From a virus (Duplodnaviria > Caudoviricetes), in IMG/VR virus record IMGVR_UViG_3300020050_010385, positions 1-64,000 of that record: a DNA stretch of 64,000 bases. One strand, written 5' to 3'. Positions 3,998-57,743 of the stretch are shown here, piece after piece. The notes below the pieces were generated by a model that had not been told where the DNA came from, searched no databases, and saw only the letters and a list, made by a program, of their open reading frames with translations. A program made the position numbers and the translations under genes. How positions within the stretch are numbered: position 1 is the stretch's first letter; the number at the start of each line of letters is the position of its first letter.

Positions 3998-4381
3998 TTA
4001 AATATCTCCGCCGCCGACGGAATCACTACCTTGTTTGTCATCATTGATCCGCTCTCTTTCCGCGATCTGCGCGTCGGCCCAAGCGTAGGGCCATTGGATT
4101 GATGTTTGCTTTGCGTATTCTTTATCGAACTCCCGGACTTCTTTGATATTTGCACACTTTGCATCGAAAACCGGGTCATCGGAGTCAACGATAACGCCGT
4201 TCAATTTTACCGGGACTGGACGATCTTCTTTCATTGTTGGAGTAAACCAAGCTTGCGGCTCCGACGGAGCATGAACGGCAAAGACGTCACGCAAAGACAT
4301 ACCGTCGGGCATTGGATTATTGTTTCCGTCGAATTCTTGGAGCTTTGGGAACGCCGGGCCACCGTCATTAACTTTTGCCAT
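3998..4381 (-). CDS. Conserved phage protein (GGPAFP...GMSLRD.FA...ADA family)
   Basis: Motif pattern widespread in phage early regions; start refined to MAKVND. Confidence 0.7.
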   Translation of the reverse strand: MAKVNDGGPAFPKLQEFDGNNNPMPDGMSLRDVFAVHAPSEPQAWFTPTMKEDRPVPVKLNGVIVDSDDPVFDAKCANIKEVREFDKEYAKQTSIQWPYAWADAQIAERERINDDKQGSDSVGGGDI

Positions 4382-4382
4382 T

Positions 4383-4724
4383 TTATTTATCCTTTCTTCG
4401 GTAGACGACCCCGACTTCTTCTTCTTTGAACATGATATATTTATCCTCGAGAAAATCAAACCCGTCGGCGAAAGCGTTCGATCGGATCTGAACATAATCG
4501 CCGGCCTTGACCTGTTCGCAATCTTCAGCGACAAGAAGAACTTCCAACATGCAAGTGTTGGCTTCCAATTTATTTGCCCTTTCAGGCAATATGATGCCGC
4601 CGCCGGTGACGATCTCTTGAGCTACGACGACGACATGTTTGTTGACCGGCACAATGTGAAGCTTTTTTAATTCTGATTTCTCAATCATTTTAATTATCCT
4701 CTCTTTGGTTTGTAGGTTTTCCAC
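4383..4724 (-). CDS. groES: GroES/Cpn10 co-chaperonin
   Basis: PVNKHVVV...TGGGIILP...VKAGDYV...YIMFKEEEV. Confidence 0.8.
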   Translation of the reverse strand: MENLQTKERIIKMIEKSELKKLHIVPVNKHVVVVAQEIVTGGGIILPERANKLEANTCMLEVLLVAEDCEQVKAGDYVQIRSNAFADGFDFLEDKYIMFKEEEVGVVYRRKDK

Positions 4725-4923
4725 CCTTTAAAATGAGTTTGGTTCCCCTGCGCCACGTGCATTCAAAATTCGGGTACTCGTATCCAGTTTCTGTCTCAAC
4801 TCGATCACCCATATAACAAACCACCTCTTTTATTGGCGCTTTTGAAACATAGATAGCGTAAGCTGTAAATATGGCTAGCATCAACAAGAGTCCGATAATT
4901 AAAAAAGTCAATATCTCTTTCAT
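4690..4923 (-). CDS. Small membrane-anchored protein
   Basis: N-terminal hydrophobic helix; ATG follows GGAGAGGTGA RBS in shared linker. Confidence 0.55.
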   Translation of the reverse strand: MKEILTFLIIGLLLMLAIFTAYAIYVSKAPIKEVVCYMGDRVETETGYEYPNFECTWRRGTKLILKGGKPTNQREDN

Positions 4924-4955
4924 CTCTTCACCTCTCCTCGGTCGATTGCGGTTGT
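4920..4955. repeat. 36-nt linker identical to 52116-52151
   Basis: TCATCTCTTCACCTCTCCTCGGTCGATTGCGGTTGT at both loci. Confidence 0.9.
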
Positions 4956-5092
4956 TGGCGTGTATCTTTCTTCCATCCATAAGAAATCAATCGTCTAGAA
5001 ATAGCCGCTATACCATTCCAATGCGGATTACTTGAGATAGAACCCTTCAAATCTTTTTCCATTTCTTTTGCTAACTTACTTTCTTTGCTCAT
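4928..5092 (-). CDS. 54-aa cassette ORF MSKE...QPQSTEER (not in ORF track)
   Basis: Translated by hand; same termini as 52124-52294. Confidence 0.65.
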   Translation of the reverse strand: MSKESKLAKEMEKDLKGSISSNPHWNGIAAISRRLISYGWKKDTRQQPQSTEER

Positions 5093-5120
5093 CTCACCTG
5101 TCCTTTAGTTGTTGGAGTTG
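5085..5120. repeat. 36-nt linker, 35/36 identical to 52287-52322
   Basis: TTGCTCATCTCACC(T/C)GTCCTTTAGTTGTTGGAGTTG. Confidence 0.9.
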
Positions 5121-5354
5121 ATCGGTAATATCCTTAATGGCTTTTTCTACGTATAGATATTCTGGGAATTTCATGGAGTTTTTTACTGCTTCAAAGGCAC
5201 TTAACTTTGCCTCAATTGTCCGCTGAAGATGCCACAAAGCGATTTTTCGGTAAGGATCGTCGTTATAACTAGGCATACCAAAAATTGCCTTATCTCCTAC
5301 TTCACGAATCTCTTTGGCTGCCATTTCTATCTGATCTCTGAGTTCTTTATCCAT
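5094..5354 (-). CDS. Hypothetical protein MDKELR...QLQQLKD, paralog of 52296-52667
   Basis: Shared N-terminal, central (QRT.EA) and C-terminal blocks. Confidence 0.7.
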   Translation of the reverse strand: MDKELRDQIEMAAKEIREVGDKAIFGMPSYNDDPYRKIALWHLQRTIEAKLSAFEAVKNSMKFPEYLYVEKAIKDITDQLQQLKDR

Positions 5355-5540: not shown

Positions 5541-5855
5541 CTATGGTTGATTACCGGCTTCTTTATATGCCTGCGCTGATAGGTCTAAATCTTCTTGAGT
5601 TATTCCAAGTTCGTCCAGGCGTTTTTGCTTTTCATCTTCCATTGGGTTATCTTTATGTCCCAAGCATCCTTTTTCATCGTCCCAATTATCGCAATCGCCG
5701 ATCTTTAAATACTTCTGCCCGTTATAATCAAGCAACTTGAGGTATGCTTCCGCTATCTTCGGCGGTAATTCATTGCCTTCGTCATCAGTAAAACCTCTAA
5801 AGGCTTTATTCCTTATCGCGCCCTTAATATCCATTCTCATATGATACCGCATCAC
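5541..5855 (-). CDS. Hypothetical phage protein
   Basis: ORF with CDNWD...GC.GH motif. Confidence 0.55.
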   Translation of the reverse strand: MMRYHMRMDIKGAIRNKAFRGFTDDEGNELPPKIAEAYLKLLDYNGQKYLKIGDCDNWDDEKGCLGHKDNPMEDEKQKRLDELGITQEDLDLSAQAYKEAGNQP

Positions 5856-5889
5856 TCCCCCCGTTGTTATCGAGCGTTAAAATTGTTGC

Positions 5890-6160
5890 TCCCCCTAGTC
5901 AGATTCCCCGCTAGTTTATCGGTCGGAGCCAACCGTACCATTGTCTCACCAGAGTGCCTATCGTCAGAATCGAACTGACCTCCCGTCACACCCGTCCTCG
6001 GTAAGCGAGTGAGAGTCGAACTCACCCTATCTCTTGGGATTTCTCCCGTTAAAATCAGCTAGGCGGCTTTAGTAAGCAACGATTAAATTCCACCGCAATA
6101 CGAGCGACGTAACTTTTGGTTTCATTCGAATCGTCAGGGTACTACCCCACGCCTAGCTTA
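5890..6160 (-). ncRNA. Candidate structured RNA with two tRNA T-arm-like hairpins
   Basis: GTGAG-TTCGACT-CTCAC, GTCAG-TTCGATT-CTGAC, GGGA-GAAA-TCCC, and a 9-bp long-range stem in an ORF-free gap. Confidence 0.5.
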
Positions 6161-6956: not shown

Positions 6957-9151
6957 GCGACCCTCCTTTTAATAACTAATTTTTGTCTTCTTGGATCGCC
7001 TAAACCAGTTTTAGCTCTTTTTAAAATAACTTTGTGGTTGTTTCTATTCAATTCTTCTTCAGTCTCATAAAGTCTTGCTGTTGTAATGATGGACCTCATT
7101 TTGTCTGAAACACGGTAATAATGTTTTCGGCCTTCTTTCTGCCTATTGAGCATGTCAAGCATAACCATATCTTCAAGAAAGCAATGAACCGTATAAGCCG
7201 TGTACTTACTTCCTTCTTGAATCACGTGCTTAATAGGCTCGCGATCCGAATCTTCTTTATTTAGAAGCCACACTTTTCTCAGAATTTCTTCGTCTCGTTG
7301 GTTAATAGTATCAAGCGCTATTCTTCTAATTAACGGAAGATCCTCAAGCGTAGCTTCTTCACGCCCGTAAAGAAAAGCCCGATAGACAGCAATATTACTA
7401 ATCATTTTTGCAAATCTTATTCCAGTTTCGCTGTAAGGAGCAGACTTGATATAGTCTCTACGAAACTTATCCCGACTAACAACTCCACGCATTGCAGCCA
7501 CGTAAAGGGATATGCCTTTTACAGCCTCCTGAAGTTCAGGACTTAGCTTTGGAAGTTTAATTCCTTCCTCAGCCTTCTTCATTATGTTTTTAACGCAGCT
7601 ATAAACCATCCGAGCGCAACGATCTTCGTCTGCCTTAAAGGTTTCTCTGGAAGACGATGAAATAGCTTTATCAATAGCGCCTTCGGCAAAGGCTAAATCA
7701 TTGCTGCGCCCAATGTTAAGCTTAGCAAACCGCTCACCTAAAGCTTGATTTGTTACAGCCTCATTGTAAATATCGTCTGTAACTGCGGCCAATAGCCCAA
7801 ATCTAAGTTTTGTGTAATTACGAGTTACGCCATTTCCAAAGCTTTTAGAGGTATATCCATCATACCCATCTCTAAGCTGTGCATTGATTTCCATCTTTTC
7901 TGACTCTGGCATAGAAGTAACAGTTGAAAAATCTTTAATAATGAGAGACATTCTATTGCCGTCCAGCTTAGCAAAAACCGACGGATCGCCTCTTTTTGTT
8001 TCCATTCCAGAAACTAAAGCATGTGTAGTTACGGAGCTAAGAGAATACCCTATTTCTTCGTAAGGCTGACAAAGATATTTAAGGCCATTAATGACTTGAG
8101 TTTTTCCAGAAGAGGGCGGTGCAACTAAGAACATCCAGACCGGATCCGTATCAAACATATTGGAAATCATGATTATTATTGCAAGCTCAATGCTCATGTG
8201 GTTTGGCTCATGAAGTAGCTCGTCATAAGACCTAAGTACGTCTTGAATAGTTATGGAAGGGTCAACCTCGGGCGCCTTATTCTCTTCTAGCATTGCTTCA
8301 ACTTCCTGGGTAATAGAAGTCCTTGGCTTTGGCTTAAGCAACGCGCTAAGTAACCTAAAGCAGCGTTTTGGAGTATTTTTTAAAACGCCATATCTTATTA
8401 TAAAATCTCTTGAGTCAAATCCGTTAGGTTTTCCGGCTGGCCAATGGCAAAACTGTAATTGCTTTGCCGTTTTACTAAGCCTATCCAATACAATCATTTC
8501 TCCTTTTAAGCCTGCTTCGTCATGGTCATATAATACGGAAACGACTTTGCCCTTAAAAAACTCGGCCCACTCGGGTTTGAAAGTGCCTGCACCCGGAGAG
8601 CAAACCGCCCTACCCATTTTTTTTGCAGCATCAAGAAGCCACTGTACTGCAATGGTATCCCACTCACCCTCGCAAATATATACCGACTGAGGGTTGACTT
8701 TGACGAGCTCAGAAAGGCCAAACAAACCAGTCGATCTCCCAGCGGTAGATATAACCTTGCCTCCGATTCTGTATATTCTAAGATCAACCAGCTTTCTGTC
8801 AGCCCCGCGGACTGCAATAGTATAATGTCCAGCATATCCAAGTTCGACCCAATTAAAAGCGCATTTTGGCAATCCTCGATCTTCTGCAAGAGCTTCAATA
8901 TGCTCTGGGGTAATTTGTTGAATGTTTCGCTCATTGATTTTCTCCAGGAATTTTTGGGAATTTCCTGAGGAAGAACAAACTTTGCAATCCCACAAGAGTT
9001 TTTCCCAGTTAATGTAAAAGTGCTTCTCTTTCATGCAAAATGGACAATCACCAACTACCTGCGTGTCTGCCAATGATCTTAAATTAACTCCGTGCATCGT
9101 AAACATTTTAAGCTTCTTAAACCTGTCTTCTGTCAAATCTAGTTCACTCAT
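6953..9151 (-). CDS. Primase-helicase fusion (Zn finger + TOPRIM + AAA+)
   Basis: CPFC..H...CKVC; ICEGEWD, YDHDEAG; APPSSGKT Walker A, IIKD Walker B, ERF. Confidence 0.85.
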   Translation of the reverse strand: MSELDLTEDRFKKLKMFTMHGVNLRSLADTQVVGDCPFCMKEKHFYINWEKLLWDCKVCSSSGNSQKFLEKINERNIQQITPEHIEALAEDRGLPKCAFNWVELGYAGHYTIAVRGADRKLVDLRIYRIGGKVISTAGRSTGLFGLSELVKVNPQSVYICEGEWDTIAVQWLLDAAKKMGRAVCSPGAGTFKPEWAEFFKGKVVSVLYDHDEAGLKGEMIVLDRLSKTAKQLQFCHWPAGKPNGFDSRDFIIRYGVLKNTPKRCFRLLSALLKPKPRTSITQEVEAMLEENKAPEVDPSITIQDVLRSYDELLHEPNHMSIELAIIIMISNMFDTDPVWMFLVAPPSSGKTQVINGLKYLCQPYEEIGYSLSSVTTHALVSGMETKRGDPSVFAKLDGNRMSLIIKDFSTVTSMPESEKMEINAQLRDGYDGYTSKSFGNGVTRNYTKLRFGLLAAVTDDIYNEAVTNQALGERFAKLNIGRSNDLAFAEGAIDKAISSSSRETFKADEDRCARMVYSCVKNIMKKAEEGIKLPKLSPELQEAVKGISLYVAAMRGVVSRDKFRRDYIKSAPYSETGIRFAKMISNIAVYRAFLYGREEATLEDLPLIRRIALDTINQRDEEILRKVWLLNKEDSDREPIKHVIQEGSKYTAYTVHCFLEDMVMLDMLNRQKEGRKHYYRVSDKMRSIITTARLYETEEELNRNNHKVILKRAKTGLGDPRRQKLVIKRRVA

Positions 9152-11049
9152 TTTAATTCCTTTGCTTCGGCCCAAGTTGTAAAAGTTATTTTGCACCCAA
9201 CAGGAATGTCCACCGGCAGCCCAACTTTTTTGCTGTCTCTTTGCATTTCTTTTTGTACTGCTGATATAATTTCATTCCTGTATTTTTTGTCCGCATGTTC
9301 AGATACTTCTACAACAAGTTCATCGTGAATAGTTAAAACCATTTTAGCTTCCCACGATTTGGTAGCCCTTAACAAGGGGCCTATTCTACAAATGGCTCTT
9401 TTGATCATGTCGGCACACGGACCTTGAATATCGTAGTTTACAGCTTTATAAGCAAATCGTGGATCTAAATAGTATCTACGCCCAAAAACATTTTCTATCA
9501 TTCCCGCTTTTTCTGCCATTCTAGTTTTTCTTTCTACGTACTGACTTACACCAGGAAGTCTGCGATCAAATTCGTCTATAATATCTTGAGCTTCTTCGCG
9601 TGAGCATCCAAATAGCGCTGCTCCTGCTTTGGCTGTTCCCCCGTATTGTTTTAAAAACATTGTTGTTTTTCCTTTTTTACGGTGTATTGTTTTTCCAGGT
9701 TTCCAGTCTGGCAGATGCCCCCATACCTGGTTGCCTACAGCTTCATGAACATCTTTACCTTGTAATAGCGCTTCCATTAAGATTTTATCTCTGGCTTGAA
9801 ACGCAAATAGCCATACTTCCATTTGGCTATAGTCTAAAAGATACCAAACATGGCCTGGTCTAGGACCCATAGCTTCGCGCGGCTTAAGCTCAATATCAGC
9901 TTTCTTTTTTACACTATCTGGGGAAGCTACTTGCTGAAGATTGGGGTCCGCGCATGACAGCCTGCCAGTAACTGTAGCTTGACGAAAATTTGGGTGTAAT
10001 AACCAACACTCCTCGTCTTTGGCCATAAATCTCTCATAAGAATTTATAAACTTTTGAACCATAGACTCTGAAGCCTTGTACTCCAAAACCGCTTTAGCTA
10101 ATGGATCTTTTTCCGATAAACGTAGAAGCTCGTCATTGTCAATGCTTGGAGCGCCTGAGTCCGTCCTATTGTATACTCTGTTGCCGCGCTTCTTAACAAA
10201 CAACTCTACCATTTGCTTTGGGGAATTAACATTAAGATCTTTTGCGCCAAGCTTCTCCATTTTCTCTTTCCATTTAGCTGAATACGCGCCATAAAACTTT
10301 CTAAGGCTTAATAAATTTTCTGGAAAACAATTGACTCCATTAGCCTCCATTCTATAAAGCTCTTTCATTACCGCTATTTCACCTTCATAAACAGGCTTCA
10401 AAGATGGAGTTTTTTCTAATTCTTCAGATAACCCCGCAAATAATGGCATTGTCATTTCAAGATCTTCAAGCGCATACTCCATTAAAACATTTTTATCCGC
10501 CAACCAATAATCTGATCTCCAATGTTCTTTTGTGCCGTGGGTTTCTTCGTTAGCAATATTCCATTTTAGTTTCTTAGCTTGAAGCCGCGCTTTTTTTGTG
10601 CTATCTTCAAGAGCTTTCTGTTTAGTATTATCCATTTCTAACCACTGTAAAGATAAGTTTTTAAGACCGTAAGAAAACAAAGACCCACCCGTTAAAACAT
10701 GGGCCAAGAATTGTGTATCATGTACTTTTGTCCAATCAAATTTTATTCCAGAAAGTCGCGTCATCCTAATATCAAAAGACAAATTATGGCCAACCTTTAT
10801 AATTGCTGGGTCGCCAAGAATTTCTGACATTGCCTTTAGATCCCTGGAAACAATATTAACTTTACGAGTTGTGGGGTTTACTTCCCAACGAATAAAGGCA
10901 GAATTACCGTGTAGGTCTTTAAAGGCAAATGCAAAAGGTCTAGCGGGACACATAGCGTATTTGGTATAAATTGCACTTTTCCAAGGGTTTAACCCTGTGG
11001 TTTCGGTATCGTATGCTATAATTGGGCCTTTTAAAGACGATAATGACAT
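9148..11049 (-). CDS. DNA polymerase family A (3'-5' exo + pol)
   Basis: DTETTG, HNLSFD, TGRLS..PNLQQ, DYSQ.E, IHDEL. Confidence 0.95.
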   Translation of the reverse strand: MSLSSLKGPIIAYDTETTGLNPWKSAIYTKYAMCPARPFAFAFKDLHGNSAFIRWEVNPTTRKVNIVSRDLKAMSEILGDPAIIKVGHNLSFDIRMTRLSGIKFDWTKVHDTQFLAHVLTGGSLFSYGLKNLSLQWLEMDNTKQKALEDSTKKARLQAKKLKWNIANEETHGTKEHWRSDYWLADKNVLMEYALEDLEMTMPLFAGLSEELEKTPSLKPVYEGEIAVMKELYRMEANGVNCFPENLLSLRKFYGAYSAKWKEKMEKLGAKDLNVNSPKQMVELFVKKRGNRVYNRTDSGAPSIDNDELLRLSEKDPLAKAVLEYKASESMVQKFINSYERFMAKDEECWLLHPNFRQATVTGRLSCADPNLQQVASPDSVKKKADIELKPREAMGPRPGHVWYLLDYSQMEVWLFAFQARDKILMEALLQGKDVHEAVGNQVWGHLPDWKPGKTIHRKKGKTTMFLKQYGGTAKAGAALFGCSREEAQDIIDEFDRRLPGVSQYVERKTRMAEKAGMIENVFGRRYYLDPRFAYKAVNYDIQGPCADMIKRAICRIGPLLRATKSWEAKMVLTIHDELVVEVSEHADKKYRNEIISAVQKEMQRDSKKVGLPVDIPVGCKITFTTWAEAKELK

Positions 11050-22152: not shown

Positions 22153-22602
22153 ATGAAACGGAAACTAAGCGGAAAAAAACCAGGCAATCCAAATCCTTCA
22201 CCTGCTACACGATTTAAACCGGGTAATAGATACCCAGGTCAAGGTAAAAGAAAAATTCCTAATTCGGAACTTATTAAATTTACAGCCCTTGTAATTGCTG
22301 AAACAATTAAAAAACTTCAAGCTCTTACAACTCCAGAATTAGAAAAAGTTTCTCGATCAAACGAAGTACCTTCTCTTGAACGCACTATTGCACGGGGAAT
22401 GATAACAGATATTAGATCCGGTTCTCTTTATAACTTTGATAGGCTCTTAGCGCGATCAATTGGCAATGTACCTACTAAACAAGAAATTTCTGGATTAGAT
22501 GGAGCGCCATTAGTACCGCCTCAAATTGTGATCCAGGAGGTAGAGCCTAATAGAGAAGAGGCTCCTAAGCCTAATGATAATCCAAGTACCGCCCAAGGTT
22601 AG
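22153..22602 (+). CDS. Terminase small subunit
   Basis: GNP...TRFKPGN; EISG.DG.P C-terminus; precedes TerL. Confidence 0.75.
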   Translation: MKRKLSGKKPGNPNPSPATRFKPGNRYPGQGKRKIPNSELIKFTALVIAETIKKLQALTTPELEKVSRSNEVPSLERTIARGMITDIRSGSLYNFDRLLARSIGNVPTKQEISGLDGAPLVPPQIVIQEVEPNREEAPKPNDNPSTAQG

Positions 22603-23776
22603 AAAGGTTCTCTATAACGAAGAAGCCGACCGCAAGGCACTATACGGCGGAAGAGGCTCAACCAAGTCCTGGTCCGTCGCGGATTACCTGCTAACTCGAA
22701 CCGCGTATGCTAAAAGACGGGTTTTATGTACCAGAGAAATTCAAGGCTCAATAAGAGATTCAGTTTACCGTTTGCTCTGCGACCGAATATATCATCATAA
22801 GCTCCAAAACGTTTACGACATTCAAAGGGACTGCATTTATGGGATATTTGGTTCAGAATTCCTATTTAAAGGCCTTAGGCAAAACATAAGCGAGATAAAG
22901 TCAACCGAAGGCGTTGATATTTGCTGGGTCGAAGAAGCTGAAAAGGTATCAAAAGACTCTTGGGATACTCTAATACCAACAATCAGAAAGCCAAAGTCAG
23001 AAATCATTCTGACATTCAACCCCGAAGATGAGAACTCAGACACCTACACCAGATTCGTTGAAAAAGACGGCAAGCCCGTTTCTCAGCCAGGGCTTGTCAG
23101 CGCCTTTGTCAACTGGTGGGACAACCCATGGTTCCCAGAAGTGCTGCGGCGGGAAATGCTCTGGTGCAAGCAAAACGACCCTGAAAAATACGACCATGTG
23201 TGGGGAGGGCGACCAAAGAAATACGGTCAAGCGGTTATCTTTAAGAATAAACTTCGGGTTGAAGAATTCGAACCAGCAGGCGAAGGCACTCAGTTCATGT
23301 TTGGCGCAGATTGGGGTTTTGGTGTTGACCCTTCTTGTTTGGTTCGTATGTTTATTCGGGATCGTAAATTATACATTGACCGGGAATTCTACGGGTACGG
23401 TATTGAGATTGACGATTTGCCTCGTTGTTTTGATGGCGTTGAACACTCTCGTAAGTTTACAATTCGTGGGGATTCTTCCCGTCCTGACACAATCTCTTAC
23501 ATGTCGAATCAAGGATTTAATTGCATCGGTGCAGAGAAAGGTCCAGGAAGCGTAGAAGATGGAATCGAATTCCTTAAAAACTTTGAAGCCATTATTGTTC
23601 ATCCAAGTTGTACAGGTAGCGTGGGTGATTTCTCAAATTACCGTTGGAAGGTTGACAGAATTACAGATGAAGTTTTACCTATTCCTGTGGATAAGTCAAA
23701 TCATGCTTGCGACGCTGCTCGTTATGCGCTCGAGCCGTATATGAAAGGAAACGTCAGTATCTACGACGTAATGTAA
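22574..23776 (+). CDS. Terminase large subunit, PBSX family
   Basis: GGRGSTKS, WVEEAE, FNP, GADWG, NHACDA.RY. Confidence 0.95.
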   Translation: MIIQVPPKVRKVLYNEEADRKALYGGRGSTKSWSVADYLLTRTAYAKRRVLCTREIQGSIRDSVYRLLCDRIYHHKLQNVYDIQRDCIYGIFGSEFLFKGLRQNISEIKSTEGVDICWVEEAEKVSKDSWDTLIPTIRKPKSEIILTFNPEDENSDTYTRFVEKDGKPVSQPGLVSAFVNWWDNPWFPEVLRREMLWCKQNDPEKYDHVWGGRPKKYGQAVIFKNKLRVEEFEPAGEGTQFMFGADWGFGVDPSCLVRMFIRDRKLYIDREFYGYGIEIDDLPRCFDGVEHSRKFTIRGDSSRPDTISYMSNQGFNCIGAEKGPGSVEDGIEFLKNFEAIIVHPSCTGSVGDFSNYRWKVDRITDEVLPIPVDKSNHACDAARYALEPYMKGNVSIYDVM

Positions 23777-23778
23777 CT

Positions 23779-24486
23779 ATGGACAACCAAATCAAATTTT
23801 CCGTTGTTTTCCCCACCCGTGAAAGAATCTTTTTGCTCAAGCAACTCCTCAGTTCTCTCATCCAGAACACGTGCAACACCAAAGAAATTGAAGTTCTCAT
23901 TGCCGTTGATTCCGACGATGTCATTACCCAGGAATACCTAAACACCTACCCGTTACCCTTCGTTCATATGCACGTTGTGGAACGCTCCCTCAATTTCTCT
24001 CGTGATTATTACTCTTACCTCGCATCCCAATCCAAAGGGCGTTGGATTATTACGGCAAATGACGACTGTGTTTTCGAAACTCCTGACTGGGACGTTCTTG
24101 CTTACGACGTTCTCAAAGACAAACCCAATGTTATTTACGGTTGGATCCAGGACGGCATTGACGGCTTCAGAGCCAAAGGTCACGGTAACTATTGCTGTTT
24201 CCCTCTCCAGGGACGTGCTGGTGTTGAAGCTTTGGGGGGAGTTTTCCCTGCTCGCATTCCAACTTGGGGTGCCGACATTTGGTGTAAGAACCTTTACGAC
24301 GCAGTTGACTCGGTTGTTGAATTGCCCATTACGTTGCGACATTATTGCCATCACAACCAAACCCGTGAGCAAGACCACATCTCTAAGCGCATTATGGAGA
24401 ACCAAGTTCCTTTCGACATGCGTCCGAACTATGAAGAAATCAACAAGCTGTTAGCCGCCCTTCGTAAGGAGGTTTCAAATGCGTGA
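23779..24486 (+). CDS. Glycosyltransferase (GT-A fold, GT2-like)
   Basis: SVVFPTR.R, D.DD, NDD motif. Confidence 0.8.
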   Translation: MDNQIKFSVVFPTRERIFLLKQLLSSLIQNTCNTKEIEVLIAVDSDDVITQEYLNTYPLPFVHMHVVERSLNFSRDYYSYLASQSKGRWIITANDDCVFETPDWDVLAYDVLKDKPNVIYGWIQDGIDGFRAKGHGNYCCFPLQGRAGVEALGGVFPARIPTWGADIWCKNLYDAVDSVVELPITLRHYCHHNQTREQDHISKRIMENQVPFDMRPNYEEINKLLAALRKEVSNA

Positions 24487-25021
24487 CATTATCTTCGATC
24501 CGCAAATGACCTCGTTCGACATGGCTTCCCTCGAGGCTTTGGTTGAGCAAAAACGTCCCAAGTGCGCCGTTGAGATTGGTTCTTGGAAGGGACTTTCTTC
24601 CAGCATCATTGCTCGGTACTCTGATCTTTTGTATTGTGTTGACACGTGGCAAGGTGCCCCGGACGAAGTTCACATGGTTAACGAAGCGAAGGAACGGTCA
24701 GTGTTGGAGGTTTTCCGAAGCAATATGAGCATCATGGGGTTGACCGAGAAGGTTCGTCCGATGCTTATGACCTCGGTTGAAGCGCAAAAGATCTTTGTTC
24801 CAGGGATCATTGATTTCATTTACATCGACGGGGATCACACCTACGAAGCTGTGATGGAAGACTTTAATTGGTTTGAACTATTAATGCCGGGAGCAATCAT
24901 GGCTGGACACGACAACGACGAAGCTCACCCCGGAGTGCAAAGAGCGTTAAAAGAAAGCTTTGGGGAGCACTTCAAAGCTATGGATAAATCCTCGGTTTGG
25001 TTCATACAGAAGGCTCAATAA
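24479..25021 (+). CDS. Class I SAM methyltransferase (Methyltransf_24-like)
   Basis: VEIGSWKG.S, IDGDHTYE, GHD. Confidence 0.85.
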   Translation: MRDIIFDPQMTSFDMASLEALVEQKRPKCAVEIGSWKGLSSSIIARYSDLLYCVDTWQGAPDEVHMVNEAKERSVLEVFRSNMSIMGLTEKVRPMLMTSVEAQKIFVPGIIDFIYIDGDHTYEAVMEDFNWFELLMPGAIMAGHDNDEAHPGVQRALKESFGEHFKAMDKSSVWFIQKAQ

Positions 25022-25023
25022 AA

Positions 25024-26433
25024 ATGGCCACAAAGAAAACAAATTCAAAGCTTAAAGGTAAGGAAGTCAAGAACAATTCCATTGGTCCACTCACTAACCC
25101 GATGTCGGGTATTTTTGACACGTTCGGTTTGGGTGGAGGTGCTGCTGCTTCTTTGCCGTACGAGATTGCTAACAACAACTCTTACAACCTCATTTCTCTC
25201 CAGAGAGTCATGCTCACGTATGCGTATGTTCTCCATGGACCACTTCGCACGTTGGTGGATCAGCCTGTGTATGACGCTTTCCGTGGGGGCATTAAGATCA
25301 AGACTGACGAGGTTTCGCCTGAAGAAATCGAAGACCTTCACCGTGAAATGAAGAAACTCAAGGTCACCAAAAAGATTATCGAAGCCATGCGTTGGGACGG
25401 TTTGTTTGGTGGGGCTGGGATTATCATTAACACTAACCAGAATCCGGCATCTAAACTTGACATCGACCAGGTTAAAGACAATTCCCCCCTCGAGTTAATC
25501 GCAGCTGACCGTTGGGAACTTACCTGGAACGGTATTCCAACCTCGGAAAAAGCCACGTTCTCCTATTATACCAAAACAGTTCATCAGTCCCGTGTCGCCC
25601 GTATCGTTGGAGAAAATGCTCCTTCCTTGGTAAGACAGCGTTTACAAGGTTGGGGGATGTCCAAGATCGAATGCGTTATCCGTGAAATTTCCGCTTACTT
25701 TAAGAACAACAACGTTATTTTCGAACTCCTCGATGAAGCCAAGATCGACATTTGGAAAATCAAAGGTTTTAATTCTCAAGTTCTTTCCCAGTTAGCGCAA
25801 GGTAAAACGGCTAAGCGCATTCAAATGGCGACGTACATGAAGAACTTTTTGAACGCTATCACCCTTGACGCTGACGACGATTACCAACAAAAGACCATGA
25901 CCTTCACAGGTCTAGCCGACATGCTTGAGCAAATTCGCATTGGAATTGCTGCTGCTGTTCGCATGCCCATGGCTAAGATCTTCGGGTTAGCTGCTAAAGG
26001 TTTCGCTTCCGGCGAGGACGACATCGAGAATTACAACGCTATCGTCGAGAACGAACGGGAAAAAGCCGAGGAAGTTTTGGAGTTAATCGTTCCAGTTATT
26101 ATGATGAAGGTTTGGGGATTTGTTCCGGACGACTGGAAAGTGGAGTGGAAACCGCTTCGAGTGCTTTCGGCTGAACAGGAAGAAAACGTTAAGACCTCGA
26201 AGTTCGCCCGATACTCTTCACTTTTCTCCCAGGGAATTCTCAACCCGCAGGAATACTGCGAAGTGCTCAAGCAGGAAGGCATTCTTCAAATGGAAACCGA
26301 AGTTGCTAAGGGGGCTGAACCTGAACCCCCGATGATGGCACAAATGGACATGGGGGACGAGGGTGAAGGGGAAAACATTTCAGGGGCAAAGAAACCTAGT
26401 GGTGGGAAGAGTCCGACAAAGGAGAAAGAATAA
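25024..26433 (+). CDS. Portal protein (DUF1073-type)
   Basis: VD.P..DA.R, LFGG, H.SR, FG....GF..GE.D..NY; position. Confidence 0.85.
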   Translation: MATKKTNSKLKGKEVKNNSIGPLTNPMSGIFDTFGLGGGAAASLPYEIANNNSYNLISLQRVMLTYAYVLHGPLRTLVDQPVYDAFRGGIKIKTDEVSPEEIEDLHREMKKLKVTKKIIEAMRWDGLFGGAGIIINTNQNPASKLDIDQVKDNSPLELIAADRWELTWNGIPTSEKATFSYYTKTVHQSRVARIVGENAPSLVRQRLQGWGMSKIECVIREISAYFKNNNVIFELLDEAKIDIWKIKGFNSQVLSQLAQGKTAKRIQMATYMKNFLNAITLDADDDYQQKTMTFTGLADMLEQIRIGIAAAVRMPMAKIFGLAAKGFASGEDDIENYNAIVENEREKAEEVLELIVPVIMMKVWGFVPDDWKVEWKPLRVLSAEQEENVKTSKFARYSSLFSQGILNPQEYCEVLKQEGILQMETEVAKGAEPEPPMMAQMDMGDEGEGENISGAKKPSGGKSPTKEKE

Positions 26434-26609
26434 TGCGACGTCATGAGTTGCTTGCTGCTAAGAAGGATGAGCATCGGGAGTCACGGGTAATGTACGGTAA
26501 GACCGTAACCAAGGTTACTATAGACGGTAAAATCGATAGATACGAAGTAGATCAAAAAACCTTTAAGACCATTGAACAATTACAAGAGTACATACCTCAG
26601 TTAAAATGA
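26433..26609 (+). CDS. 58-aa protein with MRRHELL leader (not in ORF track)
   Basis: Translationally coupled to portal stop and to the next ATG. Confidence 0.65.
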   Translation: MRRHELLAAKKDEHRESRVMYGKTVTKVTIDGKIDRYEVDQKTFKTIEQLQEYIPQLK

Positions 26610-27592
26610 AAACCCTTAAACCAATATACGACCGTGACGCTTACTCAGCCCCGATTGCAAAGGAGATTTACTACGCTTTGTATTTGGCTATCTTTGCTCC
26701 GCTTTTCCAGATCATGGAAGGCAAGCCGACGGTTGAGAATGCTTCGAGTCGTTACTTGGTTCAGGCTTTGCGCTCGGGAAAGTTACAATACGTCAACGGA
26801 TTCTTCATTGGACAACTCAATTCAAACCTTTCAAAAGAACTTAGGGGCATTGGCGCAGTTTACAATAAAGTAAAAAAGGCCTATAAGCTGGAGACTGGCG
26901 ACCTGCCCCAAGATGTACTGTTGGCAATCACAGAAGGTAACATCGAAGCAAAAGCAAAGTTAAGACAGGTCGAGGATTTCCTTAAAGCCGTTGAAGGGCA
27001 AAAGATTAAGGTGGGTGACCTTACTCCGCTCTTCGGGAAAACCTTACAGGGGTTGGATAAGCAATTCGAAACCACTACAAAGAAGGTCACGGGCAAAGAG
27101 TTAGGGATTCCTTTACGTCCAGAGTTGGTGGAAAAGCTTAAAGACGACTACACCGAAAACCTCGATCTTTACATCCAGAAATGGCACGATGAACAAATCC
27201 TGCGTTTAAGACAGAAAGTGTCTTCAAACGTACAGCAAGGTTTCCGAGCAGAGAACTTGATTCAGGATATCCAAGCGGAAAAGAAGGTATCCTACAATAA
27301 AGCGAAGTTCCTAGCCAAGCAAGAAACAAGCTTAATGGTTTCGAAGTACCGCCAAGTTCGTTACGAGGACGCCGGAGTTAATAAGTACATGTGGTCTACA
27401 TCAAAGGATTCAAGGGTGCGTGATGCTCATCGCCACCTACAGGGGAGAATTTTCAGGTTCGATCAACCCCCCGTCACTGATCCTGCGACAGGTGCAAGAA
27501 ACAATCCCGGCGAAGATTTTAACTGCCGCTGTGTAGCAATTCCCGTTTTATCAACCGTTAACATGTTGGAGTTTGATTATGCAGAAAAATGA
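26606..27592 (+). CDS. Minor head morphogenesis protein (Mu gpF/SPP1 gp7)
   Basis: W.T..D.RVR..H..L.G..F...PG..NCRC. Confidence 0.9.
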   Translation: MKTLKPIYDRDAYSAPIAKEIYYALYLAIFAPLFQIMEGKPTVENASSRYLVQALRSGKLQYVNGFFIGQLNSNLSKELRGIGAVYNKVKKAYKLETGDLPQDVLLAITEGNIEAKAKLRQVEDFLKAVEGQKIKVGDLTPLFGKTLQGLDKQFETTTKKVTGKELGIPLRPELVEKLKDDYTENLDLYIQKWHDEQILRLRQKVSSNVQQGFRAENLIQDIQAEKKVSYNKAKFLAKQETSLMVSKYRQVRYEDAGVNKYMWSTSKDSRVRDAHRHLQGRIFRFDQPPVTDPATGARNNPGEDFNCRCVAIPVLSTVNMLEFDYAEK

Positions 27593-28412
27593 CAAACCGC
27601 TCAAGGTTCTAATTGCTTGTCCGACTTGTGGGATTGATCCTGACCCCGACCGTTGGCTAAGTTCGCTATTTAAGATTCTTAACGACGTTCGACGTAATGG
27701 ATTCACGCACGCTATTTTTTGTCCGTACCGTCAGAATTGGTGGCCAGCTAACAACGAAATTTGGGACGTCGCTTTCGCTAACAAGTTCGATTACATCCTT
27801 CGGATTGACGACGACATTCACGGAGTTCCCGTTGACGGATTCACCAAGCTTCTGGAAGCTGACAAGGTTGTCATCGGTGCAGCCTATCCAAATCGCCGTT
27901 ACCCGTACACCGTTCAAGCGATGCTAAGGAGGGATCCTTCCAGAAGTTTGATTGAGACCTTTGACAAGAACGAGCAGACGTTGGAGTCGGTTCAGTTCCA
28001 CGGTTACACCGGGACGGATGTTCAGCAAGTTGACTTGATCGGGTTCGGTATGACACTTATTAAGGTAGCACCTTTTAAATACCTGGAACGCCCAATGTAC
28101 AAAGGCGACGAGGTTTGCCCGGACGATTCTTACTTCGCTCAGATTTGTTTGGACAACAACATCCCCCAATACGTGCACTGGGGTGTAAGAATTAAACATG
28201 CGCACGTTACGTTTGCCAACTCCGGGCATCTGTTTAATGCTGACGTTCTTGAAAGAAATCCCGGACTTAACGAAAAGTCGGAAAATGTATTTTTAGCTGA
28301 ACCGAATGAACCGAAAAGGGCAGTGGAAGAAAAACACCCCAATATTATGGGAAATGGGCAAAATGATCATACTAGTAATTTGTTTAAGGAGATAGAAAAT
28401 GCGAAGACATGA
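27579..28412 (+). CDS. Glycosyltransferase (GT-A fold)
   Basis: RIDDD, GFGMTLIK, DD.YF. Confidence 0.7.
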   Translation: MQKNDKPLKVLIACPTCGIDPDPDRWLSSLFKILNDVRRNGFTHAIFCPYRQNWWPANNEIWDVAFANKFDYILRIDDDIHGVPVDGFTKLLEADKVVIGAAYPNRRYPYTVQAMLRRDPSRSLIETFDKNEQTLESVQFHGYTGTDVQQVDLIGFGMTLIKVAPFKYLERPMYKGDEVCPDDSYFAQICLDNNIPQYVHWGVRIKHAHVTFANSGHLFNADVLERNPGLNEKSENVFLAEPNEPKRAVEEKHPNIMGNGQNDHTSNLFKEIENAKT

Positions 28413-28581
28413 TTTGTTAGAAAGAAAGAATGGCATTGGTCATAGCTTTCCTACAAAAGAAAAAGCTGAATTTTATAAAGAGCAGTTAGAAAAAGAAGGG
28501 TATAAAGTTTCAATTCATCAAGAAGCTAATGGGTTTGTAGCTATTGTAGAAAGAGTACCAAAAGACTATGGAACTAAGTAA
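28399..28581 (+). CDS. 60-aa protein with MRRHDLL leader
   Basis: RBS AAGGAG; directly before the protease gene. Confidence 0.65.
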   Translation: MRRHDLLERKNGIGHSFPTKEKAEFYKEQLEKEGYKVSIHQEANGFVAIVERVPKDYGTK

Positions 28582-29715
28582 ATGCAATTAAAAAACGCTA
28601 AAGACTGGCCAGAAGTTTATTCCTGCAAGTTCCTTGAAGCTGGGATTGTTTCCTATGAGGATTCCGGTGCTGGGATTGCTTTGCTCAAGAAAGAAACGAT
28701 CGACAAGATGGCTCACACCTTCATCGGTCGTCCGGTTATCATTGATCATCAAAATGTTACACCGGAGAATTACGACAAAGTGGCCGTTGGCTACGTTATC
28801 AATGTCCGTTTTTCTCCAGAAGATGCGTGGTTCTACGCTGACTTTATTGTGACGGACGACAAAGCACGGGCTTTGATCGACGAAAAAGGCTATTCAGTTT
28901 CCTGCGCCTATAATGTTTTAGACGTAGCAGAGGGGGGTTTATGGCATGACATCAAGTTCGACGGAGAGATTACTGACGGTTCATTCACGCACTTAGCGTT
29001 AGTGAATTCTCCCAGGTATGAGGATTCTAAAATCACAAAGCAGTTACCAGCGATGCTGGTGAACGGAAAGGCTGCTCATTATCTAAACAATCAGAAGGAG
29101 TGTGGAATGTCAATTTTCAAATTGTTCAAGAAGTCGGAGAACAATAAGCAGGAGGAAGCCCCGATTCACGTCGCCCTAAACGATAAAGCCGTTCCCCTTG
29201 CTGACGTTCTTTTGTACTGCCTTAATGGCAAGAAGTTAGCGTTTGAAACTTATACTGCCAGCAATGACAAAGAAAAGTACGTTGCTCAGGATTCTGACAT
29301 CGTTGACATGAACGGTAATTCTGTCAGCATCGGCGAACTCAAAGCTTGCTATCTTATGAAGTCAGAGAATGAAAAGAAAAACTCTGATGACGAAAAGAAA
29401 AAGGAAGAGGAAGCCAAGAACGCTAAGGAAGAGGAAGAAAAGGAAAAGATGGAAGCCGCAAAGAAGAATGAAAAAGAAGAAGAGGAAAAGAAAGCCAAGG
29501 AGGACGAAGAAAAAAAGAACGCTGCAGCTGAAGAAGAAAAAGCTAAGGAAGAAGAAAAAAAGAACTCCAAAGCTAAGTCCGATGCTTTCTTCCTTGAATT
29601 AAGTAATGCAAGCAAGAACTTCGACGCTCTGGAAAATGAATCTGGTTCGCCTGCTCCGAAAACACGTGCAGAACGGGCTGCTGAATTCCGAGCGAAAACC
29701 AATAAAAAAGCTTAA
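28582..29715 (+). CDS. Prohead protease-scaffold (DUF2213)
   Basis: P.IIDH, SVSCAY, HLALV..PRY; charged coiled C-terminus. Confidence 0.85.
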   Translation: MQLKNAKDWPEVYSCKFLEAGIVSYEDSGAGIALLKKETIDKMAHTFIGRPVIIDHQNVTPENYDKVAVGYVINVRFSPEDAWFYADFIVTDDKARALIDEKGYSVSCAYNVLDVAEGGLWHDIKFDGEITDGSFTHLALVNSPRYEDSKITKQLPAMLVNGKAAHYLNNQKECGMSIFKLFKKSENNKQEEAPIHVALNDKAVPLADVLLYCLNGKKLAFETYTASNDKEKYVAQDSDIVDMNGNSVSIGELKACYLMKSENEKKNSDDEKKKEEEAKNAKEEEEKEKMEAAKKNEKEEEEKKAKEDEEKKNAAAEEEKAKEEEKKNSKAKSDAFFLELSNASKNFDALENESGSPAPKTRAERAAEFRAKTNKKA

Positions 29716-29745
29716 CAATCGAAAACAAAACAGGAGGTTATAGAA

Positions 29746-30204
29746 ATGCCTATTCAATTGAATCAGTTTAAGCTCACCAACCAACTCGGTGAGGTCATGA
29801 ACCCGGCAGCAAACGTTATCGCTGTCCGTCTTTCCAGTACGTATACACCTGCGGGTGCAGCTGGTGACGTTGTTAAATTCAACGCTACCGAAGACGGTGA
29901 TACGCCAGTTGTTAACCCTGCAATCTCAGGTGACGCTGGTCAGGGTGTTATTCTTTTCAACGCAAAGAAAGCTACGTACGCTGCTTTAGACGTTACCGAA
30001 ATTGCTTTGGAAGGTACAATCGTTACAATGGCCGCTGCTGGTACACTCAGCCGTCGTCAGTTGGTTTCTTGGAACTCGGTCAGTAAATACGTTCAGGCAA
30101 CTGCCACGAACCAGAATTATATCGGTATCACCCTGGATGAAGCTTCGGCTGCAGGTGACATTGTTCGTGTGTTGATTCGTCCGACACCTAACGCATTAGC
30201 ATAA
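29746..30204 (+). CDS. Capsid decoration/cement protein
   Basis: Position before MCP; IG..LD.A..AGD.VRV. Confidence 0.7.
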   Translation: MPIQLNQFKLTNQLGEVMNPAANVIAVRLSSTYTPAGAAGDVVKFNATEDGDTPVVNPAISGDAGQGVILFNAKKATYAALDVTEIALEGTIVTMAAAGTLSRRQLVSWNSVSKYVQATATNQNYIGITLDEASAAGDIVRVLIRPTPNALA

Positions 30205-30237
30205 TTTTAAAATCAAATCCTAAGGAGGAAATTAAAA

Positions 30238-31302
30238 ATGAATTACAAAGGTATCGATCCGGACAAGTTTAAACACATGATGGAAGAAAAGTACAATACC
30301 AAGAAGTTCCGTGGTTTGGAACTTATGAACGCAAACGGTGACATTGCCACCTCTTCCCTTGCTTACCAGTACGCCACCGATCGTTTGACTTACATCCGTC
30401 AACGCATTGTGGAGCAGTCGTTCTACGAAGTTAACCCGTCAGAATACTTTGACGTTATCCCAGGTGAGGGTGCCTTCTCAGCCCAGATCATTACCCAGGC
30501 TTCCATTAAAACGGGTGCCAGTTTCAAATCTGGTAAGATCAACACCGCTGGTCACAACAGCAAATTAGCCACGGCTGATGCTGCAGTTACACCGTTCTAC
30601 ACCTACGTTCGTAACTGGGCGTTGGCAATCGAGTACAGCATCTTCGACGTTCAGCAAGCTTTGTTTACAGGTTCTTGGGATCCTGTTGAAGCTAAAGAAC
30701 GTGCCCGTAAAATGGATTACGACCTCGGTATCCAAGAAATCGCATTCCTCGGGGATTCGGATGACTTGACCAATTTCCCTGGTCTTTACAGCCAATCCGG
30801 TGTTAATATCAACACCACCTTGATCACGGCTGGAACCGGAGAATTGAACGCTATGTCCGCAGCTAACTTCTCCACCTTCGTTGGTGCAGTCGTTGGAGCG
30901 TTCTTGTCAAACTGTAACCAAACCCGTTTCCCGAATACGTTCATTATTCCTCAGGACGTATACGCTGGTTTGGCTGTTCCAGTTTCTTCGACCTACCCGA
31001 ACATCAGCATGTTGAGCTACTTGAAACAAGCTTTTGACATGATCATCCCGGGTGGGAATTTCCGCATCCTTCCTTCTGCTTACGGTATGGCAACATACAA
31101 CGCAGCAGCAGGGGTTAACAAGTCACGTTACATCTTGATGCGTCGTGACATTGATACCTTGTTCCAAGAACTCCCGGTTGAGTATCAAACAACCGCTGTC
31201 GGGACGTTGAATAACTTCAACTTCCAGAACGTCGCCTACGCTCAATACGCAGGCGTTACGGTTCTTAAACCATTGGAAATTCTCTACATTGATAAAACAT
31301 AA
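30238..31302 (+). CDS. Major capsid protein (DUF2184/HK97 fold)
   Basis: Size, position, AFLGD...GL, GV....P C-terminus. Confidence 0.85.
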   Translation: MNYKGIDPDKFKHMMEEKYNTKKFRGLELMNANGDIATSSLAYQYATDRLTYIRQRIVEQSFYEVNPSEYFDVIPGEGAFSAQIITQASIKTGASFKSGKINTAGHNSKLATADAAVTPFYTYVRNWALAIEYSIFDVQQALFTGSWDPVEAKERARKMDYDLGIQEIAFLGDSDDLTNFPGLYSQSGVNINTTLITAGTGELNAMSAANFSTFVGAVVGAFLSNCNQTRFPNTFIIPQDVYAGLAVPVSSTYPNISMLSYLKQAFDMIIPGGNFRILPSAYGMATYNAAAGVNKSRYILMRRDIDTLFQELPVEYQTTAVGTLNNFNFQNVAYAQYAGVTVLKPLEILYIDKT

Positions 31303-52295: not shown

Positions 52296-52667
52296 TCACC
52301 CGTCCTTTAGTTGTTGGAGTTGGTGCTTAATTTCAAATATTCTATCGTTCATGTCTTCGCACCATTTATTACTGACAATTTCATCAATCCTTGCCTCAAG
52401 TGTCCGCTGAATATGGAATTTACCGAGTTTTAAATAATTCTTCTTTAAACTAGGCTGCTGGTCTGCGGCTTCCCAAGTCAATGGGTCACATAAATGCTCA
52501 AACATATCAGCTGCCACCTTTTCTATCTGCTCTCTGAGTTCTTTATCCATAAAATATTCTCCTGCGGGTTTTCCATCTATATAGGCTATCGTTGGAGGAG
52601 TTTTTGCTACTGAACCGTCCATGAAACTATTTAAAGCATCTATTGATTTCTTAAGTTCGTTATCCAT
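52296..52667 (-). CDS. Hypothetical protein, paralog of 5094-5354 with extra N-terminal module
   Basis: MDKELREQIE...HIQRTLEA...QLQQLKD. Confidence 0.7.
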   Translation of the reverse strand: MDNELKKSIDALNSFMDGSVAKTPPTIAYIDGKPAGEYFMDKELREQIEKVAADMFEHLCDPLTWEAADQQPSLKKNYLKLGKFHIQRTLEARIDEIVSNKWCEDMNDRIFEIKHQLQQLKDG

Positions 52668-57535: not shown

Positions 57536-57743
57536 TTTTTTCTCCTTTACTTTTGTTTGCTTTGATTTCTTCTGGGGTAGCTTTACCGATGATCCTAAAA
57601 ATAACATCCCCATTTTCCTTTGACTTACCACGAATAGCCTTCATATTATTTTTCATGATAATAGTTTCACAATCTACCATCTCTACTTTCTTACCCAGCC
57701 GTACTGAATAACCATAGACTTTTTCACTCTTATCTTTTTTCAC
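57516..57743 (-). CDS. DUF5679-like small basic protein lacking Cys
   Basis: Y.V...K.EM.......KN...A..G......G...FRI.G. Confidence 0.55.
   Translation of the reverse strand: MKKDKSEKVYGYSVRLGKKVEMVDCETIIMKNNMKAIRGKSKENGDVIFRIIGKATPEEIKANKSKGEKNGKAKK

Follow-up and report, generated by a model that had tools for sequence, protein, structure and literature searches.

A conserved N-terminal leader on unrelated microproteins in the head operon of an uncultured wastewater myovirus: a candidate capsid-targeting tag

The window analysed here is the first 64 kb (64,000 nucleotides, nt) of the IMG/VR virus record IMGVR_UViG_3300020050_010385 (G000; 95,131 bp, labelled 'complete'), which comes from an uncultured phage in wastewater. 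Its head operon contains two micro-open reading frames (micro-ORFs) from the ORF list, A (26433-26609, 58 amino acids, aa) and B (28399-28581, 60 aa), both on the + strand like all operon features of the window given below. Their products start with a common leader of 11 codons, MRRHELLAAKK in A (26433-26465) and MRRHDLLERKN in B (28399-28431), and continue with unrelated bodies. Judged from the sequences compared below, the leader is a genuine N-terminal tag that selection maintains on exchangeable microproteins. As to its role, we give a probability of about 0.5 to the reading that it is a portable N-terminal tag by which fast-exchanging small accessory proteins would be brought into the prohead during its assembly, much as by the capsid-targeting sequence (CTS) of phage T4. 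No tag of the CTS kind was previously known in this phage lineage, and we propose targeting as the candidate function of the leader.

A preliminary description of this DNA had pointed out the MRRH(E/D)LL start common to the two microproteins, and both ORFs are indeed real and lie at the positions just given. The two leaders are identical at 7 of 11 positions, and the BLASTP alignment of A and B is confined to residues 1-10. Taken alone, the A-B pair is marginal: 6 of the 10 residues after the Met are identical, for which P(max>=6) is 0.087 when all pairs of 117 ORFs are considered (composition shuffle), and the BLOSUM score of the leader pair is 31 vs 22 for the runner-up pair among the same ORFs. 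The 19-nt DNA repeat formed by the leaders is at background, i.e. about 20 chance repeats as good are found within the same 2.4 kb. The 95-kb record, however, consists of two diverged tandem phage units of about 47 kb each, as described below, and unit 2 contains two more leader ORFs: C (73 aa, start MRRHELVEKMNS, at 72,956) in slot 1, the position of A, and D (121 aa, start MRRHELVERRNS, at 74,939; G000 74939-75304, equal to L105:6939-7304) in slot 2, the position of B. Both carry Val at position 7 and hence fall outside the strict MRRH[DE]LL pattern; the pattern MRRH[DE][LI][LV] is matched by 4 ORF starts in the 95-kb record vs 0.0 in 200 shuffles. An exhaustive HMMER search with D gave two relatives, P0006 (127 aa, MRRHELLEKRN...) and P0005 (119 aa, MRRHEILEKRN...), found in slot 2 of the otherwise syntenic phage contigs L107 and L108. 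The consensus over the six proteins is MRRH[ED][LI][LV]E[KR][KR]N, with a mean identity of 7.7/11. Whether the leader also occurs on other, diverse cargo had been named beforehand as a test that could refute the packaging idea. The leader did turn up on such cargo: six proteins from four related phage genomes carry it, and their bodies are of at least four unrelated kinds.

All six leader genes reside in two fixed slots of the head operon and have start or stop overlaps with their neighbours. ORF A occupies slot 1, between the portal and MuF genes, where it is packed gap-free, sharing bases with the portal stop at its start codon (TAATG) and with the MuF start at its stop codon (ATGA). ORF B occupies slot 2, directly 5' of a protease-scaffold gene; its start lies 14 nt within the 3' end of a glycosyltransferase-like gene and its stop abuts the next ATG. 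Each has a Shine-Dalgarno sequence AAGGAG, at 26419-26424 for A (8 nt 5' of the ATG) and at 28386-28391 for B (7 nt 5' of the ATG). A scan of IMG/VR with the leader pattern gave a single match, L106 (chance expectation about 1), and a scan of GTDB genomes gave two matches, both chance. L106 is an unrelated phage in which HRDHMRRHDLVEIGNE is internal to a 129-aa ORF between portal and scaffold-like genes (L106:4652-5041, minus strand); this match may be a coincidence.

It had also been proposed that the peptide rather than the DNA is conserved, and the codons bear this out. In codons 2-7 the proportion of synonymous differences (pS) is 0.46-1.0 and that of non-synonymous differences (pN) 0-0.22 over the six pairs among A-D, meaning that synonymous sites are near saturation; the leaders of C and D differ by 3 synonymous and 0 non-synonymous changes. 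Arg is encoded by CGA, CGT and AGA, and Leu by TTG, CTA, TTA and CTT. The sequences upstream of B, D and P0006 are dissimilar, and Rfam detected no family in 24500-30500. Together, the synonymous saturation, the dissimilar upstream sequences and the missing Rfam family argue against a DNA homology arm, an RNA element or a recent gene conversion. In the predicted structures the leader lies outside the folded part of both proteins: residues 12-53 of ORF B form a small beta-alpha-beta-beta domain (Atlas model), and ORF A has three strands and a helix from residue 17 on (AlphaFold2, AF2, low confidence). We considered a twin-arginine translocation (Tat) signal peptide and rejected it, as the residues after RRHELL are charged (EKRN..., AAKKDEH...) and there is no hydrophobic stretch. 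Co-evolution of leader position 7 with the head proteins was rejected as well, given that the scaffolds of unit 2 (V7) and L108 (L7) are 100% identical.

The bodies of A and B are unrelated, as the preliminary description had claimed: BLASTP aligns the leaders only, and the same holds for A vs C and for B vs D. The bodies of A, B and C have no match to anything, and D, P0005 and P0006 have one module in common, KFKITMEDGEAYTLEAP..., which is differently placed in each of the three. The homology between D and P0005 begins within the leader, at EILEKRN (leader residue 5), and the second half of D corresponds to the start of P0005; from this alignment, D appears to consist of two tagged cassettes that have been fused. 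In word-index homology searches, A, B and C each retrieved nothing but the query, A and B had no phmmer match among all the ORFs of 90 related loci, and no further copy of the module X of D turned up in IMG/VR. Pfam and PHROGs, T4 internal proteins included, contained no above-threshold family for A-D. The gpW, SPOR and RraB matches were all sub-threshold, and ORF A was rejected as a lambda gpW head-completion protein (PF02831) with 14.9 bits vs a cut-off of 22.5 (E 0.024). The ESM Atlas offered no family for A or B, and for B only a generic beta-alpha-beta-beta (SPOR/TusA-like) shape.

A different small protein is conserved in slot 2 of distant relatives (L015:6777-6968, L018:6818-7006, L019:7809-7991, L020:5556-5750, L026:5962-6111, L027:5988-6113, L004:6975-7163 and L010:5903-6124). 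It consists of a helix followed by G-x-I/L-x-I/L-x-F-x-x-G and has no Pfam match. Membership of B or A in this family (alignment A3) was rejected, with hhalign probabilities of 0.1% and 0.3%, respectively.

The variability is sharply limited to the slots. Unit 1 ceases to align with unit 2 exactly at the bodies of the micro-ORFs (26448-26603 and 28304-28561), and the match is picked up again from the start codon that follows. Unit 2 and L108 are 99% identical in the portal, 98% in the glycosyltransferase-like protein and 100% in both the protease-scaffold and the cement protein, and their proteins differ in both slots. Slot 1 is empty in L107, and in L108 it is occupied by an untagged 78-aa ORF (MAHTKE...) that has the upstream flank and the ribosome-binding site of ORF A. 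In addition, positions 26436-26604 are replaced by 456 other bases in a wastewater contig (run X1), in which the exchanged part is flanked by 26435 and 26605; this is another slot-1 cassette. Because the flanks are near-identical, the slot proteins differ, and slot 1 is empty, untagged or replaced in relatives, we regard the two slots as hot spots of cassette exchange in which the leader persists.

The gene that follows ORF B (28582-29715) belongs to PF09979 (alias DUF2213 / Pa193_gp24). In the AF2 model, based on a 43-sequence alignment, its product has an N-terminal domain (residues ~10-150) with pLDDT >90; after it come a disordered stretch, a long E/K-rich helix (coiled coil) and a separate C-terminal helix (362-376). 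The top Foldseek matches of the N-terminal domain were herpesvirus assemblins (E 1.6e-4 and following), and T4 gp21 (5jbl) was also found; His56, Ser107 and His137 are invariant in 43 PF09979 sequences. On account of the assemblin/gp21 fold and the invariant His/Ser/His, the gene is predicted to encode a prohead protease fused to a scaffold. Pfam gives no functional description for this N-terminal domain, and the PHROGs matches say head maturation protease. The C-terminal tail, KTRAERAAEFRAKTNKKA (29659-29712), is a predicted helix after a disordered linker. Some 35 residues ahead of the C-terminus there is a conserved F-x-x-L-x-N-A motif that, from its sequence, could be a maturation site.

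The cleavage rule of the T4 prohead protease is L/I-x-E. The tripeptide [LI]-[LV]-E occupies residues 6-8 in five out of six leaders (L-L-A in ORF A), and a site of this composition would fit the T4 rule. Proteases of the assemblin/gp21 class cleave after Glu in T4, phiKZ and SPN3US (PMC5694885). For Pa193 gp24, which belongs to the same Pfam family, cryo-EM showed binding to the inside of the capsid, and it was called a putative scaffold; the same study noted unassigned helices of ~16 residues beneath the hexons (PMC11456595).

A parallel to the leader is found in a sister lineage. L003 is the closest other phage outside the leader-bearing group (its MuF is 58% identical), and two of its micro-ORFs, which flank MuF (5849-6004 and 6974-7093), share another leader, MDRRERA(H/N)..., again with synonymous differences. 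The motif of this lineage, [DN]R[RK]x[RK]Axx[YWF][KR]xK, is N-terminal, internal or C-terminal in micro-ORFs of the same slots: it occurs twice in a 244-aa slot-1 protein (L015:4270-5004), at the C-terminus of a 57-aa protein (L016:4019-4192, and L020), and internally in an 89-aa ORF (L019:4732-5001). The next-best matches of a hidden Markov model (HMM) of these motifs were the extreme C-termini of scaffold proteins, and the reverse HMM, made from the scaffold tail, retrieves the motifs of the sister-lineage micro-ORFs. The similarity of the motif to the scaffold tail ([TS]RxERAxx[WF]) scores 24.0 vs a null of 9.1 +/- 2.0 (column shuffle, P<=0.0005). On these alignments the small proteins of L003, L015, L016 and L019 look like carriers of a copy of the scaffold C-terminal tail, which by analogy with other scaffolds would be the part that grips the capsid protein. 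The scaffold tail of the own genome is the best match of the motif in L015 and L019 but not in L003, and co-variation within genomes is inconsistent. Neither the motif HMM nor the scaffold-tail HMM retrieves A or B. We limit the parallel: it supports short common tags on variable head-operon microproteins in general, not a docking site of the window leader. We also observed that the reading frame of the second L003 micro-ORF stays open for another 26 codons past its TAA (6974-7175), and that the two parts together resemble a small domain of the SH3/Tudor-like type; a pseudogene, a sequencing error or read-through could account for this.

If the leader is a capsid-targeting tag, we envisage the following course of events. 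The tagged proteins would be made together with the head proteins from one late operon by translational coupling, as the operon layout suggests, and the free N-terminal tag would dock on some part of the prohead, in its core or in its shell. The gp21/assemblin-like protease encoded after ORF B would then remove the tag, probably after Glu8 of [LI]-[LV]-E. The mature cargo would stay in the head and, we speculate, may enter the host with the DNA.

The comparison with the T4 CTS had already been drawn in the preliminary description, and it stands only in part. The presence of the leader on unrelated bodies, the location in the head operon, the adjacent gp21-fold protease and the hypervariable slots all agree with it. 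The further inference of that description, packaged and injected effectors with a possible anti-defence role, finds no support in the bodies, none of which matches a known family. Several points weigh against the comparison. Firstly, ORF A has Ala at position 8 and thus lacks the Glu of a T4-type cleavage site. Secondly, order-specific similarity of the window leader could be detected neither with its own scaffold tail (P=0.60) nor with the sister-lineage motif (P=0.70), so that no docking site can be named. Thirdly, the leader is known from just four closely related genomes, and the IMG/VR and GTDB genome scans did not find it elsewhere. Finally, morons are frequent in head operons and not necessarily structural, and the empty slot 1 of L107 and the untagged slot 1 of L108 mean that operon position alone is no sign of packaging.

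Among the other explanations, the best surviving one is that the tag is a docking peptide for a common partner, which might be a factor of the host or a protein of the phage with a role in assembly or regulation, and that it acts independently of packaging; the cargo would then be cytoplasmic late proteins such as cofactors, regulators or exclusion proteins. Conservation at the peptide level on varied bodies and a tag free of the folded domain would be expected of such a peptide too, a whole-genome scan found no likeness of the leader to any head-protein terminus, and a slot 1 that is untagged or empty in relatives points the same way. We nevertheless consider this rather unlikely, in view of the strict confinement of the genes to the head operon beside the protease-scaffold gene, the Glu-ended hydrophobic motif that suits the adjacent protease class, and the copy of the scaffold tail in the same slots of the sister lineage.

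The tag might also be functionless, i.e. the surviving N-terminus of a duplicated small-gene family whose bodies have diverged or been swapped, and which is kept since the exchanges fall just downstream of it. Recombination at this place is indicated by the D-P0005 homology that starts inside the leader, copying within one genome is suggested by C and D, which have V7 in common and are identical at 9 of 11 leader residues, and A and C have a common upstream flank. Such a remnant is improbable, however, given that the residues are kept at near-saturated synonymous sites, which is not the behaviour of a DNA homology arm. Moreover, the same peptide follows different upstream sequences in B, D and P0006, and the reverse case is seen in L108, where the flank and ribosome-binding site of A precede a different N-terminus.

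We consider it still less probable that the tag is an N-terminal signal for degradation or timing (an N-degron recognised by a protease of host or phage), or that it acts on the translation of the coupled genes. A short, charged and common N-terminal tag next to a protease gene is what one would look for in this case, but no known N-degron pattern was apparent on inspection, and effects on translation would constrain the RNA, in which Rfam found no family, and not the residues. A chance resemblance of spurious ORFs, which the marginal A-B pair (P ~0.09) and the background-level DNA repeat would have allowed, is refuted by the additional copies (four in the record vs 0.0 expected, and two more in other phages) and is also at odds with the strong ribosome-binding sites and the tight gene coupling, so we dismiss it.

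The tandem structure of the record was detected by self-comparison, in which 22.7-48.0 kb and 69.3-95.1 kb are colinear with 73-83% nucleotide identity. The early halves of the two units are mostly unrelated, with small patches in common at a constant offset of ~47.1-47.2 kb, and each unit has a separate DNA polymerase (9148-11049 in unit 1, 57740-59554 in unit 2) as well as a separate replication gene of the primase or helicase type. Two minus-strand ORFs of 84-86 aa, 5097-5354 and 52296-52550, both begin with MDKELR[ED]QIE and represent the same early gene in unit 1 and in unit 2, at an offset of ~47.2 kb. The tandem layout is either genuine or arose when two related phages were joined in assembly or binning, and unit 2 is usable as a close relative under either origin. 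The related contigs of 45,962 bp and 43,297 bp are compatible with a unit genome of ~47 kb. The nearest cultured relative is Bdellovibrio phage phi1422 (34-35% identity), in which slot 1 holds an unrelated helix-turn-helix (HTH) protein. A metagenome scan with MuF gave no relative above 58% identity, and two wastewater metagenome studies contain 39-54% of the sampled words from the region.

The head operon of the window starts with genes for the large terminase (22574-23776), a family 2 glycosyltransferase (GT2, 23707-24486) and a methyltransferase (24479-25021). These are followed by the portal gene (Phage_portal_3, 24997-26433; Pfam PF06381, E 6.7e-62; PHROG 146), whose stop overlaps the start of ORF A, and, after ORF A, by the gene for a MuF-like minor head protein (26606-27592; Pfam PF04233, E 1e-20; PHROG 324). 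In L108 this protein (4042-5226) has 394 aa vs 328 in the window, with an insertion near the N-terminus. The next gene is glycosyltransferase-like (27573-28412; PHROG 1574, E 1.9e-5), has no curated family match, and has orthologues in L003, L015, L107 and L108. Beyond ORF B and the protease-scaffold gene lie the genes for the cement/decoration protein (29746-30204; Pfam PF09956) and the major capsid protein (30238-31302; Pfam PF09950; PHROG 264). The operon thus has two glycosyltransferase-like genes and a methyltransferase gene embedded in it, an arrangement kept in L003, L015-L020, L107 and L108. These embedded genes hint that virion proteins are modified.

If the leader is a packaging signal, delivery of the CTS type would extend beyond T4-like, jumbo and P1 phages to small myoviruses with a protease-scaffold fusion. 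The tag would be a minimal one, in that 8-11 residues would be enough for loading foreign proteins into capsids, and the two slots would be sites of fast turnover of injected, probably host-directed microproteins, and therefore good places to seek anti-defence proteins. The scaffold-tail copy seen in the sister lineage suggests that phage genes could evolve access to the capsid in a simple way. A wider generalisation is more tentative, and we hold it to be possible at clearly less than even odds: myoviruses of ~47 kb might load hypervariable microproteins by means of short tags, a leader of 8-11 residues, cleaved off by the assemblin-like protease-scaffold, in the window clade and a copy of the presumably capsid-binding scaffold tail at either end of the protein in the sister clade, the slots being an arms-race locus of injected effectors.

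The leader can be compared to several known systems. Polymorphic toxin and MuF-toxin systems join a conserved N-terminal trafficking part to swappable C-terminal modules. The window resembles them in as much as a constant N-terminus is combined with swappable modules beside a MuF gene, and it differs in that the tag has 11 residues and is no domain, is not fused to MuF, and is followed by no toxin-like body. Encapsulins load their cargo by short peptides, and SaPI1 CpmB and 80alpha gp46 share a scaffold tail. The sister-lineage motif is similar to these since it copies the scaffold tail and would load cargo by mimicry; the proposed mimicry concerns L003, L015, L016 and L019, unlike the window leader, which has no detectable likeness to the scaffold tail. 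The link to Pa193 gp24 is one of family, as the gene after ORF B belongs to PF09979 as well.

Three further systems place the signal at the N-terminus. In phage P1, DarB's 30 N-terminal residues are enough to direct a reporter into the capsid (PMC9024508). DarB and the leader proteins have an N-terminal signal in common, but in P1 it is carried by one large protein (250 kDa), whereas here one short tag is found on many microproteins. In SPN3US, the paralogous head proteins gp53 and gp54 have identical N-terminal propeptides of ~15 residues with protease motifs ending in Glu (PMC5694885). The leader proteins resemble these and the phiKZ-like ejection proteins in having a common N-terminal stretch; those are large paralogues of jumbo phages, and the bodies here are tiny and unrelated. 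The third system is the T4 CTS of IPI, IPII and IPIII. It differs from the window leader in several respects: A-D match no known family in PHROGs or Pfam, which makes the leader an analogue and not a homologue; the host phage is a myovirus of ~47 kb that is not T4-like and has its protease fused to the scaffold; and the tagged genes lie within the head operon. The general features are alike, however. In both cases a phage that encodes a gp21-type prohead protease has an N-terminal peptide of ~10 residues on otherwise diverse small proteins, and close relatives differ in their cargo genes but retain the tag, just as the internal proteins of T-even phages are diverse and only their CTS is conserved (PMC3012670).

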